Source: PVC group bacterium | GTDB lineage: Bacteria > GCA-001730085 > JADFSZ01 | Length of the DNA stretch: 6,518 nucleotides | Direction: 5' to 3' | Assembly: GCA_022560555.1 (NCBI GenBank) | Contig: JADFSZ010000099.1 | Span: 1-6,518, forward strand | Shown: piece by piece, positions 1 through 6,518 of the stretch | Layout of the letters: each line of letters begins with the position of its first letter | Numbering within the stretch: the stretch's first letter is position 1 | Made by a program: the position numbers and the translations under genes | Notes under the pieces: model-generated | The model's database searches: none | Told to the model about the DNA's origin: nothing | Seen by the model: only the letters and a program-made list of their open reading frames with translations

Positions 1-850
1 GGAACTTTGTCTTTAGATCATGAGATCAGTGTTGTGGATAACAACTCAACGGATGGATCTCAGGAAGCGTTTCAAAGCACCTGGGGGTCTCGTATTGAAC
101 TGATTGAAAACCGGGTGAATTGCGGATTTAGCCAGGCGGTTAATCAGGGGCTTCGAAAATCGATTGGCAAGATGATCCTGCTGATCAATTCCGACGTTAT
201 TTTAAATGATGAAGCCCTGAAAGCGATGGCGGCCTATATAAAGGCGCATCCGGATTGCGGGATGGTGTCTGTTCAGCTCCTTGATGAGGATGGCAAAAAG
301 CAGAATTCTTATGATACCTACCCATGCCTGAGAACGGAAGTATTGGGGAAGCCCCTCACCCGGTATCTCACACGTCGTTTCGGAGCTCACAGGAGCCCCA
401 AGGATGAGGTGATGATGGTAGAGAGTTTGGTAGGAGCCTGTTTTTTGGTGTCACGTGAAGCTCTTGGGGTTGTGGGTCCTATGGATGAACGCTATTATTT
501 TTTTATGGAAGAAACAGAGTGGTGTTATCGCATGAATCGGCAAGGATTTCATATTGCGTTTTTACCCCAAGTCAATGTGATTCATAAACAGGGGCAAACA
601 GCGAGTCAATACTGGTATGAAGCTCGCGTTGAGTATCATATCAGCAAGTATCTTTTTTTTGATCAAGTTTACGGATGGCCCTTACGCGTATGCTCACAGG
701 GTTTATCCGCGTTTAGATGCGGAATCAATTTTCTTTTTAATGCCGTGTTAGGCGTTTTTGTGTCTCAAAATAGAAAAAGAGCGGGCCTTTATGGCTATTT
801 GTTGATGTGGCATGTGCGCGGATGTCCCGGAACGTGGGGCTTGAGAATGA
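1..850 (+). other. GT2 (Glycos_transf_2, WbbL/rhamnosyltransferase-like) catalytic domain of the fusion protein, N-terminus off-window
   Basis: Motifs VVDNNSTDGS, NxGFxxAxNxG, NSDV and EETEW-x-YR...H-x-x-G occur in the order typical of soluble GT-A fold GT2 enzymes. The domain end is approximate. Confidence 0.75.
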
Positions 851-2514
851 ATGAAGCGAAAAAGGTTGAAAAATGTGATGGTTCATCTTCGGGCAAAAAC
901 ACGGTTTGGGTTCGGCAACATATCCCTGAGGATGTAAAAAATGAAATTATCCGGATAACAAAAATGATAGATCAGCCTAGAGCGGAGACGGAATATTTCT
1001 CTTTATTAAAAGAATCGAGTGTGAGAAAAATATGGCGCTTCTCATCCGTTGGGGCGTCAGGATTTGTGATAAAAAAACACATACCCAAGGGAGCCGGAAA
1101 GTGGGTGCGGCAATGGTTCTCGCCCTCACAGGCGAAAAGAGAATATCAAGCTGCGTGGCATTTGCAATCCCTCGGCTTGCCGACGGTGACGCCACTTGCC
1201 TATGGCACAAGTACTCACCAGGGTCCCCGAAAGGAATCATTTATTATTTTTGAAGAAATAAAGAATTTAGGTGTTTTGTCAGTTATTTACGAAGATTTTC
1301 AAAAAAACGGCTGTTCATTTCCGAAGGACGATTTGAAATGTCTTGCCGAGATAACGGCCAAAATGCACACACGTAACATTTATCACGCGGATTTCCATAT
1401 CGGGAATATCGGTGTCGTCAGCCATGGATCAGGCAAACAGTTCATTATTATGGATCTACAGCGGATAAAGTTCAAAGGACATTTGTCTAAAAGGAATCGA
1501 AAAAGAGATCTAGCCTATTTTGTGAGTCGATTTTTAAAAAACGATGCTTTGGCTTTTATCAAAGCGTATAATTCATTTTGTTCGGGGCATAAAGATATTG
1601 TGTTTGATGAGATATGGAGGCTTAAACAAAACATTGGAAACAAAAAACGTAAAAGGCGTTTAGCGCAAGCTCTTTATCCGAAGGGAAGCTGTGTTGTCCG
1701 GGAACATGGCTATAAGATTATTTTAGCCGGACGAAATTTTCAAAATCTGATCAAGAACGAATCAATATGGCCGGCTAAGGTCAAAGCCAATCCGGAGAAT
1801 AGAGTCATAAAAAAGTCAAGAACGTCTCAGGTTTATTATGGGAATTTTGGTAATATTGGGACTTGTTATTATAAAATTGATAATTCCCGCGGAGTTTATG
1901 ATTTTATAAAAAATATATTTCGACCCAGCCGGGCTCTGAGAGCTTGGCGGGCCTTGGCTCGTTTAGAACTTTTGGGCTTTCGTGTGCCACAGGCCGTTTT
2001 GTGTGCCGAAAAAAGAAACCTGATATTTTGGCGGGAGAGTTTTCTTATCACAAAATCCGTATCAGGAGCCGTATCTTTAGACCGGTATATCAAAGAGAAC
2101 GAATTATCTGAGAACTTTGCCGCCAAAAAGAAGTTTATTCTGGAGAACTTGGCCGATTTGCTTTTCAGACTGCATCTGCACAAAATTTACCATGCGGATC
2201 TCAAAGCGGCGAATATTCTTATCGATCCAAAAAATCTCGAGATGACGATTATTGATACGGATCGTGTGTATTTTAAGAAATGTCTTTTCGAGAAACATAT
2301 TGTTAAAAATCTATCACAGCTCAATGCCTCGTTTTTTGAAAATGTCAGTATGAAAGAACGGATGCGTTTTTTTCAAAAATACACACAAGGCGCCATGAGT
2401 CGCCCCCAACGATCCCGAGTTTTAAAGGCTGTTCAAACGAAAACAATTTCACGTTGGAAAGAGATCGGAAGATCCGTAAAGAGTATTCCCGGGGGGGCGA
2501 TGAACCATGCCTAA
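1..2514 (+). CDS. 5'-truncated multidomain protein: family-2 glycosyltransferase fused to two tandem lipopolysaccharide-kinase (Kdo/WaaP family, protein-kinase-like) domains
   Basis: The frame is open from nt 1 (GGA ACT precede the TTG at 7, with no upstream stop). The usual GT2 N-terminal strand (xSIIIPxYN) is missing, so the true start lies upstream of the window. GT2 motifs: EISVVDNNSTDGS, NCGFSQAVNQG, LLINSDV (DxD-like), FFMEETEWCYRMNRQGF...VIHKQG. These are followed by two kinase-like modules with HADFHIGN/MDLQR and HADLKAANILID/IDTDR. Stop is TAA at 2512-2514. Confidence 0.85.
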   Translation, partial: GTLSLDHEISVVDNNSTDGSQEAFQSTWGSRIELIENRVNCGFSQAVNQGLRKSIGKMILLINSDVILNDEALKAMAAYIKAHPDCGMVSVQLLDEDGKKQNSYDTYPCLRTEVLGKPLTRYLTRRFGAHRSPKDEVMMVESLVGACFLVSREALGVVGPMDERYYFFMEETEWCYRMNRQGFHIAFLPQVNVIHKQGQTASQYWYEARVEYHISKYLFFDQVYGWPLRVCSQGLSAFRCGINFLFNAVLGVFVSQNRKRAGLYGYLLMWHVRGCPGTWGLRMNEAKKVEKCDGSSSGKNTVWVRQHIPEDVKNEIIRITKMIDQPRAETEYFSLLKESSVRKIWRFSSVGASGFVIKKHIPKGAGKWVRQWFSPSQAKREYQAAWHLQSLGLPTVTPLAYGTSTHQGPRKESFIIFEEIKNLGVLSVIYEDFQKNGCSFPKDDLKCLAEITAKMHTRNIYHADFHIGNIGVVSHGSGKQFIIMDLQRIKFKGHLSKRNRKRDLAYFVSRFLKNDALAFIKAYNSFCSGHKDIVFDEIWRLKQNIGNKKRKRRLAQALYPKGSCVVREHGYKIILAGRNFQNLIKNESIWPAKVKANPENRVIKKSRTSQVYYGNFGNIGTCYYKIDNSRGVYDFIKNIFRPSRALRAWRALARLELLGFRVPQAVLCAEKRNLIFWRESFLITKSVSGAVSLDRYIKENELSENFAAKKKFILENLADLLFRLHLHKIYHADLKAANILIDPKNLEMTIIDTDRVYFKKCLFEKHIVKNLSQLNASFFENVSMKERMRFFQKYTQGAMSRPQRSRVLKAVQTKTISRWKEIGRSVKSIPGGAMNHA
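991..1585 (+). other. Lipopolysaccharide-kinase (Kdo/WaaP, PF06293-like) domain 1
   Basis: Candidate beta3 Lys in VIKKH (K at 1072-1077). Candidate alphaC Glu in AKREYQAAWHLQSLGLP (E at 1141-1143). Catalytic loop YHADFHIGNI (1381-1410). Metal-binding IIMDLQR (D at 1453-1455). Boundaries are approximate. Confidence 0.7.
1690..2385 (+). other. Lipopolysaccharide-kinase (Kdo/WaaP, PF06293-like) domain 2
   Basis: Candidate beta3 Lys in CYYKID (1873-1875). The helix ALRAWRALARLELLGFRVP aligns residue for residue with the domain 1 helix. Catalytic loop YHADLKAANILID (2188-2226) is near-canonical HxDLKxxN. Metal-binding IIDTDR (2248-2265). Boundaries are approximate. Confidence 0.75.
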
Positions 2515-3289
2515 TGTATCCATTGTTGTGCCGGTTTACAATCAACCTGAAGTGACAAAACAATGTCTCGAGAGTTTGTTGGCTCACACTTATCAAGGGT
2601 GCGAAATACTTGTGATAGATAACGCTTCTGATGGCCCTACACAGTCGTATTTAAAAACACTGCCTGTGAGGCTTATCACAAACGATGTGAATCGAGGATG
2701 CGCGGGAGCCTGGAATCAGGGAGTGCGTTTGAGCTGCCACGAATATATTTGTATTGTTAACAATGATATTGTTGTCACGCCCGGCTGGCTGGAGGCCCTT
2801 ATGAATTTTTTTCAATCACATCATTATAGTATGATTTCACCCGCGATGAGGGAGGGTGAATTGGATTACGATCTTGATCAATTTAGTCGTCAATTCCAGA
2901 ATTTATGGCGTGATGTGACCCTGAGAGGCGAATTTTACGGAGTGTGTTTTCTGGCCCATCGTACGTTGTATCAAGAGGTGGGACTCTTTGATGAGAATTT
3001 TCGTTTCGGGAAATTTGAAGACGAAGACTTTTATTTTCGTATGCGAAATCAAAATAAAGAAGCGGCCGTAACATGTACCGCATTCATTCATCATTTCGGA
3101 AGCAGGACCATTCAAACTCTTAAGAAAACCCAGGGAGATTTTGAAGAGGATAACCGTAAGTATTTTCAAAAAAAGTGGAAAAAACTTTACTTATGGCGCA
3201 AACTCCGTAAGTGGCGTCTCCTCGGACATCATAAACATGTTACGGACCTTATAAACCGGACACGCGCTTTTATTGCCGGCTCTAAGTGA
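2507..3289 (+). CDS. Family-2 glycosyltransferase (small soluble GT-A type)
   Basis: N-terminus is MPNVSIVVPVYNQPEVTKQCLESL (classic GT2 start), then ILVIDNASDG, NRGCAGAWNQG, IVNNDIVV and FEDEDFYFRMR...IHHFGS. ATG 2507 overlaps the upstream TAA (2512-2514) by 8 nt, and a G-rich stretch (GGGGGGG around 2489-2496) may serve as an SD. Stop is TGA 3287-3289. Confidence 0.88.
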   Translation: MPNVSIVVPVYNQPEVTKQCLESLLAHTYQGCEILVIDNASDGPTQSYLKTLPVRLITNDVNRGCAGAWNQGVRLSCHEYICIVNNDIVVTPGWLEALMNFFQSHHYSMISPAMREGELDYDLDQFSRQFQNLWRDVTLRGEFYGVCFLAHRTLYQEVGLFDENFRFGKFEDEDFYFRMRNQNKEAAVTCTAFIHHFGSRTIQTLKKTQGDFEEDNRKYFQKKWKKLYLWRKLRKWRLLGHHKHVTDLINRTRAFIAGSK

Positions 3290-5108: not shown

Positions 5109-6229
5109 ATGTGAACATTCCTTTCTTCTATTATCAGCGTGAATATAAAAACATTCGAGCAGATCTCCAAAAAGCGGCCGGGGATGTATTTGCTTCAGGA
5201 CGATTTATTCTTGGCGATCATCTCAAATCATTTGAACAACAATTCGCACAATTTTGTGGGGCCCCATTTGCTGTTGGTGTCGCAAGCGGAACGGATGCGC
5301 TGACACTCGCCCTTTTGGCTTGTAGACTGAAGCCGGGAGATGAGGTGATAACAGTTGCCAATGGGGCTTATCCGACCATAGTGGGGATTGTAAGGGCAGG
5401 ACTTCGTCCGGTATTTGTTGATATTTGTCCCGAAACATGGCTCATGGATTCCAAACAGATCGCGGGCGCTTGTTCCAAAAAAACGAAAGCCATTATTCCC
5501 GTCCATCTTTTCGGGAATATGGTTGATATGAAGGCCTTGTCCAAAAGTGCGAAAACAAAAAAACTGATTGTTATTGAAGATGCGTGTCAAGCTCATGGAG
5601 GGATTCTTGATAAAAAGAAAGCCGGAACTTTTGGGCGTTTCGGATGTTTTAGTTTTTATCCAACCAAAAATTTGGGGGCCTTCGGAGACGGCGGGGCCAT
5701 CATTATGCATCGTCAAAAGGATTATAACGCCTTAAGACAGTCGAGAAATTATGGGCAATCGGATCGGTACAATCATCCCGTATTTGGATTGAACAGTCGT
5801 CTTGATGAATTGCAGGCGGCCTATTTGAGCGTTAAACTCAAATATTTAAAAAGATGGAATCAGTGGCGATCCCATCTAGCTCATTTGTATCGAGAACATC
5901 TGAAAAAAATTGATGAGATTTCCATGCCTTGTATAAACCCCTTAAGCCGGCAAACCCATCACTTATTTGTGATCCGAGTCAAAAAGAGAAATGCCCTGCA
6001 GGCCCATCTAGCCAAACAGGGGATTATGACCCTCATTCATTATCCGATTCCGGCTCACAGACAAAAAGCCTTTCTGGGGCTTGGTTATAAGGCGGGAGAT
6101 TTGCCTCATACGGAGAGATGCTGCCGCGAAATTTTATCCCTTCCCATAAGCCCCTTTTTAAAACCTTCTGAAGTGCGTACTATTTGCTCTTTGATTGAAG
6201 GGTATTATAAGAAAAATACCCGTTCGTGA
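5102..6229 (+). CDS. DegT/DnrJ/EryC1/StrS family PLP-dependent sugar aminotransferase
   Basis: Motifs FILGDHLKSFEQQFAQFCG, VASGTDALTLAL, PGDEVI, IIPVHLFGN, IEDACQAHG and FSFYPTKNLGAFGDGGAI, with the Schiff-base Lys at 5666-5668. Start candidates are TTG 5102, GTG 5105 (GTGA overlap with the upstream TGA at 5106-5108) and GTG 5111. AAAGAG at 5091-5096 is a possible SD. The gene ends with tandem in-frame stops TGATGA (6227-6232). Confidence 0.9.
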   Translation: MVNVNIPFFYYQREYKNIRADLQKAAGDVFASGRFILGDHLKSFEQQFAQFCGAPFAVGVASGTDALTLALLACRLKPGDEVITVANGAYPTIVGIVRAGLRPVFVDICPETWLMDSKQIAGACSKKTKAIIPVHLFGNMVDMKALSKSAKTKKLIVIEDACQAHGGILDKKKAGTFGRFGCFSFYPTKNLGAFGDGGAIIMHRQKDYNALRQSRNYGQSDRYNHPVFGLNSRLDELQAAYLSVKLKYLKRWNQWRSHLAHLYREHLKKIDEISMPCINPLSRQTHHLFVIRVKKRNALQAHLAKQGIMTLIHYPIPAHRQKAFLGLGYKAGDLPHTERCCREILSLPISPFLKPSEVRTICSLIEGYYKKNTRS

Positions 6230-6292: not shown

Positions 6293-6322
6293 TTGACATA
6301 TACGACATATATGTGCTACTTA
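6293..6322 (+). promoter_or_regulatory. Candidate sigma70-type promoter for the riboswitch leader
   Basis: There is a perfect -35 hexamer TTGACA at 6293-6298. The best-spaced -10 is weak: TACTTA at 6317-6322 with 18-nt spacing, preceded by TGc at 6314-6316 (extended -10-like). Better -10 hexamers (TATAAA 6321-6326, CATAAT 6333-6338) are badly spaced. The region is AT-rich, so a chance match is possible. Confidence 0.35.
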
Positions 6323-6340
6323 TAAATACACACATAATAT

Positions 6341-6430
6341 ACTACTGAAATAGGGCATACTTTGGGTAACCAAAGGACGCAAAGTTACGGATCCCGCATG
6401 CACGGGATGGCCGATCTACCAGTGAATTTG
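6341..6430 (+). promoter_or_regulatory. c-di-GMP-I (GEMM-I) riboswitch aptamer, copy 1 (complete)
   Basis: The core GGGCATAC-TTTGG-GTAA-CCAAA-GGACGCAAAG (6353-6384) matches the remembered Vibrio cholerae Vc2 core GGGCAAACC-AUUC-GAAA-GAGU-GGGACGCAAAGCC, including a GNRA tetraloop hairpin. The second hairpin is CGG-ATCCCG-(CATGCA)-CGGGAT-GG-CCG (6388-6413), followed by CTACC (6416-6420), which resembles Vc2 UUACC. A possible closing helix is TACTG (6343-6347) with CAGTG (6420-6424). Outer boundaries are approximate. Confidence 0.85.
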
Positions 6431-6432
6431 AT

Positions 6433-6473
6433 AATCGTATTGGTTGAGAAGCCGTACGATTTTTTTGGTTTTT
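6433..6473 (+). terminator. Intrinsic (rho-independent) terminator; likely expression platform of riboswitch copy 1
   Basis: Stem AATCGTA(T)TGGT (6433-6444) pairs with GCCG-TACGATT (6451-6461): 7 Watson-Crick pairs, then 2 G-C and 2 G-U pairs with one bulged T. The loop is TGAGAA. A T-run follows at 6460-6466 (its first two T lie in the stem), then GG, then TTTTT (6469-6473). Confidence 0.6.
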
Positions 6474-6480
6474 ACAGTCG

Positions 6481-6518
6481 ATAAAGGCAAACCTTGAGTA
6501 ATCAAGGGACGCAAAACT
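6481..6518 (+). promoter_or_regulatory. c-di-GMP-I (GEMM-I) riboswitch aptamer, copy 2 (5' half only, truncated by window end)
   Basis: The core GGCAAAC-CTTGA-GTAA-TCAAG-GGACGCAAAACT (6486-6518) has the same architecture as copy 1. Two compensatory base-pair changes occur in the tetraloop stem relative to copy 1. The second hairpin and the 3' strand lie beyond the window. Confidence 0.7.

Follow-up and report, generated by a model that had tools for sequence, protein, structure and literature searches.

Does the 3′ end of contig JADFSZ010000099.1 hold two complete riboswitches for the same second messenger, one after the other, and what would such a pair control? The contig (6,518 bp) belongs to the metagenome-assembled genome (MAG) of a "PVC group bacterium" (protein record MCH7505117.1), and the window analyzed here is the entire contig. 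Here, we report that the last 230 nt are in all likelihood the start of a conserved noncoding transcription unit with two complete class I cyclic di-GMP (c-di-GMP-I, or GEMM-I) riboswitches in series. Such arrangements are established elsewhere: 347 doublets and 12 triplets of c-di-GMP-I have been catalogued and read as pseudo-cooperative (Sherlock et al. 2022, PMC9481103), c-di-GMP-I is the most numerous same-class tandem, with one triplet verified experimentally (PMC9481103), and contiguous arrangements are significantly enriched for three families, c-di-GMP among them, the phyla enriched for contiguous c-di-GMP switches being Thermodesulfobacteriota and Deinococcota (PMC12452182).

The whole window was scanned with Rfam 15 (cmscan), and exactly two matches reached the gathering score, both to RF01051 (c-di-GMP-I; gathering score, 35 bits) on the plus strand. 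The first (6344-6423; 56.8 bits; E value, 1.9e-9) covered the full model (1-87 of 87), and the second (6476-6518; 39.3 bits; E value, 3.6e-5) covered model positions 1-43 and was flagged as 3′ truncated. Two matches above this score are beyond chance, and they bear out an initial annotation, made from the letters of the sequence, that had named a covariance-model search as its check. Two c-di-GMP-I aptamers thus stand in series on one strand (Table 1). Both copies have the first hairpin of GEMM-I, a 6-bp stem closed by a GUAA (GNRA) tetraloop, and aptamer 1 has within the window the P2 helix with a bulged G (the partner of C44) and the closing P1 helix. The consensus flanks GGCAAAC ... GGACGCAAA are matched exactly by copy 2 and with one deviation by copy 1. 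All features placed by the initial annotation were found at their coordinates; its form of the copy 1 core needed correction to GGCAUAC, with a U (window 6358) at the middle, highly conserved A of the Rfam consensus GGCAAAC, in four of four strains (this one and the three described below).

Because the window is the whole contig, copy 2 is lost to the end of the assembly rather than to any trimming of the window. Sister contigs from three independent assemblies, L017 (ENA ERZ23499143), L018 (GCA_022561295.1), and L019 (ENA ERZ27267408), were found through a protein search with the DegT aminotransferase encoded upstream of the switches, as one 94%-identical cluster. The DegT gene of the window shares 94.5 to 97.9% DNA identity with theirs (third codon positions, 90 to 95%), the aptamer-terminator-aptamer order is common to all four contigs, and window 6474-6518 equals L017 5954-5998 base for base, so that the sister contigs are a fair proxy for the lost sequence of aptamer 2. 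In these contigs, aptamer 1 scored 55.5 to 59.5 bits, and a complete 137-nt aptamer 2 scored 63.2 to 63.9 bits (best model, RF03167; in L017, the match ends at 6095 with 63.9 bits). The second hairpin and 3′ strand, whose absence the annotation would have counted against its call, are therefore present in all three.

Completed from the sister contigs, aptamer 2 spans 141 nt and comprises a P2 helix (AACU-A-CAG-GCC... / ...GGC-GG-CUG-AGUU) with a bulged GG, a 3′ strand in which an unpaired GC includes the C92 equivalent (L017 6088), read as GC(C92)-CGAACUG, and a P1 helix (CAGUCG / CG-A-ACUG); the contigs that supply P1 and the P2 bulge are identical to the window over the 45-nt overlap. Folded alone and unconstrained, it takes up the P1/P1a/P2 architecture of GEMM-I (-44.6 kcal/mol; z = -2.96). 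Its P2 is extended by a rod of about 75 nt (L017 6003-6077) with three further helices of 7, 8, and 6 bp (GCCUUAC/GUGAGGC, UGUCUCAC/GUGAGACA, and ACAGGC/GCCUGU, respectively). Both L018 substitutions within this extension, of an A-U and of a G-C pair, give G-U and keep the pairing. As far as sequence can tell, the locus has every feature that marks a member of c-di-GMP-I.

A first alternative is that the second copy is a DNA-level duplication or an assembly artifact with no RNA function, as might be suspected of a contig that breaks inside copy 2, since assemblers commonly break at repeats. With the copies aligned in the Rfam register, 18 base pairs could be compared, of which 11 were identical, 6 were changed on both sides, none was changed on one side, and 1 was a mismatch (U-U in copy 1). 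The six double-sided changes all stay Watson-Crick (two in P1a and four in P2). Those in P1a (U6361-A6374 versus C6493-G6506 and G6365-C6370 versus A6497-U6502) are the two compensatory changes from which the initial annotation had argued for a conserved RNA helix rather than a DNA repeat; both are real, and the full count upholds the argument. With four independent assemblies in agreement, and with copies that are alike in the conserved core only, an artifact is hardly credible. Between the four strains, the riboswitch blocks are 93 to 100% identical, and the 5′ half of aptamer 2 is identical in every strain pair (45/45), while 22 to 24 of the 30 nt after the DegT stop codon are identical (73 to 80%); the strain differences in aptamer 1 are located in the P2 terminal loop. 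The between-strain and P2-extension samples are small, yet they agree in direction, all pointing to a conserved RNA.

As to the ligand, contact positions G20, A47, and C92 and a conserved interhelix C-G pair are described for Vc2 (PMC4744006). The equivalents of G20, C44, A47, G83, and C92 are kept in both copies (G83 and C92 of aptamer 2 were seen in the sister contigs), which favors c-di-GMP as the probable ligand. The annotation had reached the same preference from the G20 equivalents G6354 and G6486, and the Rfam register agrees with that assignment. The c-AMP-GMP (GEMM-Ib) class, for which an A at the position-20 equivalent is the criterion (PMC9481103), was rejected on the G in both copies, and sensors of that kind are as hard to credit here as the artifact with which we group them.

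It is also conceivable that aptamer 2 is a specificity variant of family RF03167 (c-di-GMP-I-GGC; gathering score, 59 bits) for another ligand, in which case the pair would form a two-input logic gate and not a same-ligand doublet. The complete aptamer 2 does score best on that model, above its gathering score (63.2 to 63.9 bits versus 59). From a comparison of the RF03167 and RF01051 consensus lines, we take the signature of the variant to be a G in place of the A at the A47 equivalent; the sole core difference between the lines is GACGC-G-AA (RF03167) versus GACGC-A-AA (RF01051). Aptamer 2 reads GACGC-A-AAA, with A6513 at the signature position, and was rejected as a GGC variant on this base. 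Moreover, its truncated copy in the window was assigned to RF01051, aptamer 1 likewise scores on RF03167 (49.9 bits, below 59), models of the clan (RF01051/RF03167) pick up the same RNAs (PMC9943018), and RF03167 also models P1 pairs, which aptamer 2 has. We consider a second ligand very unlikely and continue with a same-ligand doublet.

Table 1. Coordinates of the riboswitch elements and associated features (window positions unless L017 is given)
Feature	Position	Strand	Basis and remarks
Promoter-like element	6293-6322	+	-35 TTGACA 6293-6298, 18-nt spacer, TG-extended -10-like TGcTACTTA 6314-6322; read from sequence
Aptamer 1, complete c-di-GMP-I (GEMM-I)	6343-6424	+	RF01051, 56.8 bits; P1 and hairpins in minimum free energy fold
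Aptamer 1 P1	6343-6347/6420-6424	+	
Aptamer 1 P1a	G6355-C6356/G6379-C6380 plus 6360-6365/6370-6375	+	GUAA loop 6366-6369
Aptamer 1 P2	6383-6396/6403-6417	+	Bulged G6409-G6410
Aptamer 1 key bases	G6354 (G20), C6378 (C44), A6381 (A47), C6419 (C92)	+	
Copy 1 core	GGCAUAC 6354-6360; GGACGCAAA 6375-6383	+	Read from sequence
Terminator T_a, expression platform of switch 1	6433-6474	+	RNAfold, -11.6 kcal/mol; in minimum free energy and centroid folds
Aptamer 2, 5′ part, cut by contig end	6475-6518	+	RF01051, 39.3 bits; 45 nt identical in 4/4 strains
Aptamer 2 P1, 5′ strand	CAGUCG 6475-6480	+	
Aptamer 2 P1a	G6487-C6488/G6511-C6512 plus 6492-6497/6502-6507	+	GUAA loop 6498-6501
Aptamer 2 key bases in window	G6486 (G20), C6510 (C44), A6513 (A47)	+	First P2 bases 6515-6518
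Copy 2 core	GGCAAAC 6486-6492; GGGACGCAAA 6506-6515	+	Read from sequence; copy 2 reaches last base of window
Hairpin 3′ of aptamer 2, 11 bp	L017 6107-6137		
Weak terminator T_b	L017 6139-6162	+	Scanner; AGCCG-cuuuau-CGGCU-G-U6; 5-bp hairpin, -8.9 kcal/mol
Strong terminator T_c	L017 6162-6200	+	Scanner; 14 bp + U8, -19.0 kcal/mol
835-amino-acid open reading frame, GT2 glycosyltransferase fused to Kdo/WaaP-type lipopolysaccharide kinase	7-2514		

Each aptamer is followed by an expression platform of its own, T_a between the aptamers and T_b plus T_c after aptamer 2 in the sister contigs, and the initial claim of two complete switches in series holds on this count as well. The hairpin and U-tract that the annotation had noticed after copy 1 were recovered by RNAfold as T_a, a hairpin AAUCGUAU-GGUU-GAGA-AGCC-GUACGAUU (6433-6461) followed by UUUUUUGGUUUUU, with a U-tract of the form U6-GG-U5. 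T_a is conserved in the four strains, with a variable interruption of the U-tract; a simple terminator scanner did not call it because its stem is A/U rich. P1 of aptamer 2 starts at 6475, right after the T_a tract (last U, U6473, then A6474), so aptamer 2 would be made only in transcripts that read through T_a.

Each terminator may be controlled by ligand through an alternative pairing. For switch 1, the candidate antiterminator joins ACCAGUG (6418-6424), which is the P1 3′ strand and the C92-adjacent base, to UAUUGGU (6438-6444) in the 5′ arm of T_a; it lies 3.2 kcal/mol above the minimum free energy (MFE) fold and also appears in the fold of a transcript lacking the T_a 3′ arm. T_a and the folded aptamer 1 do not overlap and coexist in the MFE fold, the layout expected of an OFF switch in this model. 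Pairing of ACCAG (6418-6422) with the GG inside the T_a U-tract was considered and rejected, as the GG is not conserved between strains.

For switch 2, the sister contigs place two terminators downstream of the aptamer and its 3′ hairpin, with the starts of T_b and T_c 23 nt apart. A 13-bp long-range helix pairs ACAGUCGAUAAAG (L017 5954-5966 = window 6474-6486), running from the P1 5′ strand of aptamer 2 through G20, with CUUUAUCGGCUGU (L017 6144-6156), the loop and 3′ arm of T_b. The helix is part of the MFE fold of the full switch 2 platform, and 13 bp were reached by only 12 of 2,000 shuffles. Neither the binding pocket nor the T_b hairpin can coexist with it, and the free MFE fold lies 10 kcal/mol below the aptamer-enforced fold (-96.3 versus -86.3 kcal/mol), so that ligand binding would have a cost to pay. 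In these models, the helix can be read as an antiterminator (OFF) or, abutting the U-run, as a long-range terminator stem (ON). No alternative pairing partner was detected for T_c. We rejected the idea that T_c ends a convergent gene, with no minus-strand frame open for >12 codons from the contig end and a U-run on the plus strand only, as we did a small open reading frame (ORF) in the aptamer 2 platform (40 open codons in L017, no start codon, and an indel that disrupts the frame in L018). For other RNA families downstream, an Rfam E-value scan of L018 returned subthreshold noise only.

We propose that transcription would begin about 13 nt upstream of aptamer 1, driven by the conserved TTGACA/TG-extended -10 element, and that aptamer 1, judging from its conserved determinants, would bind c-di-GMP and govern T_a. 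Read-through of T_a would allow synthesis of aptamer 2 and then of the hairpin, weak T_b, and strong T_c. Under OFF/OFF logic, c-di-GMP would promote termination at both switches, in competition with pairing of the P1 3′ strand and C92 region to the T_a 5′ arm in switch 1 and of the P1 5′ strand and G20 to the T_b 3′ arm (13 bp) in switch 2. We favor this logic because neither terminator overlaps an aptamer or prevents its folding, and because the alternative pairings use aptamer strands. Two switches for the same ligand in series would, judging from the literature, give a steeper, "pseudo-cooperative" response.

The same tandem switches could instead follow ON logic, with c-di-GMP binding preventing termination and expression on at high c-di-GMP. 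The ligand-free MFE fold of switch 2 sets the 13-bp helix directly before the U-run in terminator geometry, the ligand-bound-like fold leaves only the weak 5-bp T_b hairpin, and many c-di-GMP-I switches, including those of D. acetoxidans, are predicted to be ON (PMC9481103). However, the switch 1 terminator coexists with its folded aptamer without overlap, as in an OFF switch, and a terminator stem that must span about 180 nt would form more slowly than the local T_b hairpin. Ligand binding and switching direction are both predicted from sequence, and in our judgment, OFF/OFF is probable, with ON the less likely direction, though one to be kept in mind.

Several observations weigh against a cis-acting OFF/OFF doublet. 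Aptamer 1 has a U at a normally invariant A (GGCAUAC), and the only four strains at hand are nearly identical, giving almost no between-species covariation. The length of the switch 1 antiterminator (7 to 8 bp) is not above chance (1,033 of 2,000 shuffles), and this pairing is less stable than T_a (-5.7 versus -11.6 kcal/mol). In switch 2, the position of the 13-bp helix directly 5′ of the U-run means that it could be a terminator stem, reversing the logic. T_c is strong, so that whatever read-through the switch permits at T_b may have no effect farther on, as reported for the weak-strong dual terminator of Bc1 (PMC11218506). In the sister contigs, no ORF was found for about 300 nt after aptamer 2, with stops in all six frames, and an exact sigma-54 motif is encountered before the next possible gene.

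This motif, TGGCAC-N5-TTGC, which we take to be the sigma-54 -24/-12 consensus, is found as TGGCACaaagaTTGC at L017 6324-6338, 125 nt after T_c on the same strand, and is identical in L018; it is the only exact match in L017 and occurred in 0 of 200 shuffles. The only open frame after the switches has its ATG at L017 6398, about 60 nt past the motif, and reads MHFLAYYRANLINGNFAKNYEYD(T/M)H... before it runs off both contigs (L017 6398-6474; L018 1926-2011), which end 77 to 86 nt past the ATG and leave 28 codons visible. The window breaks inside aptamer 2, the ends of L017 and L018 lie ≤10 nt apart, and L019 also breaks in or just after the unit; breaks of four assemblies in or just after a noncoding unit hint that a repeat or a strain-variable gene follows directly. 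A GTDB scan with the DegT protein returned relatives at ≤42% identity only, with no GEMM-I nearby. Exact-DNA scans of JGI metagenomes (aptamer 2 33-mer and downstream 25-mer) and of IMG/VR gave no match and no longer contig, and a plasmid BLAST search gave a distant DegT match only.

The target can be read in two ways: either the switches control the passage of polymerase through three terminators to a gene that is also served by a sigma-54 promoter, or the unit is a self-contained RNA of about 385 nt. The latter would be a stand-alone, c-di-GMP-responsive noncoding RNA gene (promoter, aptamer 1, T_a, aptamer 2, hairpin, T_b, and T_c) with no ORF under its control in cis. Products of about 130, 340, and 380 nt would be made in proportions that depend on c-di-GMP, and these isoforms would act in trans (through base pairing or as a sponge for protein or ligand) or would interfere with transcription at the sigma-54 promoter; the unit sits between a cell-surface-sugar operon and the candidate sigma-54-driven gene. 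A free-standing RNA is in keeping with the missing ORF, with the strength and plus-strand specificity of T_c (14 bp, U8, -19 kcal/mol), with a sigma-54 motif that gives the next possible ORF its own promoter, and with a 13-bp helix that brings together the 5′ side of aptamer 2 and the 3′ region, as in a closed RNA body. In addition, prematurely terminated c-di-GMP riboswitch transcripts are Hfq bound in C. difficile, where trans roles have been proposed (PMC8583004). On the other side, c-di-GMP-I switches with a long leader and multiple terminators ahead of the ORF have been described (Bc1; PMC11218506), the sigma-54 motif is a consensus match only, and the downstream gene is out of view past the contig ends. 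Furthermore, no trans target can be proposed, and no c-di-GMP riboswitch with a demonstrated trans role turned up in a limited literature search. A stand-alone RNA thus appears unlikely to us; if the unit does end at its own strong terminator, it would be a natural second-messenger-sensing RNA of this kind. If instead the doublet is layered on a sigma-54 promoter, it would combine RNA-based and enhancer-dependent control.

The cis-acting doublet would be transcribed from the promoter-like element in Table 1, a block that is nearly invariant in the four strains. Its spacer holds a direct repeat, GACATATA-c-GACATATA (6295-6302 and 6304-6311), which is invariant in the four strains and, set between the -35-like and -10-like elements, looks operator-like. 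A sigma-70 scanner did not call the element because its -10 is without the final T. The transcription start would be at about 6329-6331, about 13 nt before aptamer 1.

Taken as a doublet, the locus resembles the 347 known c-di-GMP-I doublets and Bc3-5, the triple-tandem arrangement that Zhou et al. reportedly described from Bacillus thuringiensis in 2016, in having two complete aptamers on one strand, intrinsic terminators of their own, the canonical G20/A47/C92 bases, and an expected steeper ("pseudo-cooperative") response. It differs from them in its host, an uncultured PVC-group MAG, in the lack of an ORF directly after the switches, and in the ~75-nt P2 extension of aptamer 2. By alignment, it shares with Vc2 of Vibrio cholerae the P1/P1a/P2 helices, the GNRA tetraloop, the G20/A47/C92 contacts, and the C44-G83 interhelix pair, whereas the loops are GUAA here and GAAA in Vc2, the tetraloop-receptor positions are deleted in the Rfam alignment, and aptamer 1 reads GGCAUAC. 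GUAA loops dock on tandem C:G pairs. Such pairs are present in both P2 helices here, where the loops may dock. Riboswitch-derived RNAs that act in trans are known from Listeria, namely, the SAM riboswitches SreA and SreB. In the present unit, too, transcripts would stop at a terminator of their own, as those RNAs and the Hfq-bound GEMM transcripts of C. difficile (PMC8583004) do, and may work independently of any gene in cis; here, however, this is only a possibility raised by the missing ORF. The closest parallel to the T_b-T_c pair is Bc1 of the Bacillus cereus group (Liu et al. 2024, PMC11218506), in which a weak terminator is likewise followed by a strong one a few tens of nucleotides on. 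Bc1, however, is one switch on its own, which precedes a gene and has a translational effect besides, while the dual terminator here comes with switch 2 of a doublet, and the next ORF lies farther off. The locus is an ordinary case of the known tandem c-di-GMP-I arrangement, with minor particularities only: the host lineage, GUAA loops without the canonical receptor, the U of GGCAUAC, the long P2 extension, three terminators, and no adjacent ORF. It extends this arrangement to an uncultured PVC-group lineage and brings nothing new in principle.

The genes upstream, on the same strand as the switches, are a cell-surface sugar operon. They encode a GT2-Kdo/WaaP-type kinase fusion, two further GT2 glycosyltransferases, an NAD-dependent sugar epimerase/dehydratase, and the DegT-family aminotransferase, and the five genes follow one another with overlaps of 4 to 8 nt, stop and start codons overlapping. 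The position of the doublet suggests c-di-GMP signaling through RNA beside a surface-polysaccharide gene cluster in a PVC-group lineage. The ORF of the GT2-kinase fusion probably extends past the contig start. The 260-amino-acid GT2 gene of the window (2507-3289) corresponds to two products (110 and 142 amino acids) in L017 (1990-2772), reflecting either a strain frameshift or an assembly error. Separately, an unrelated Planctomycetota MAG contig (L013) has two Acido-Lenti-1 RNA matches (47 and 49 bits) on opposite strands at 9702-9896, near a 16S rRNA gene.

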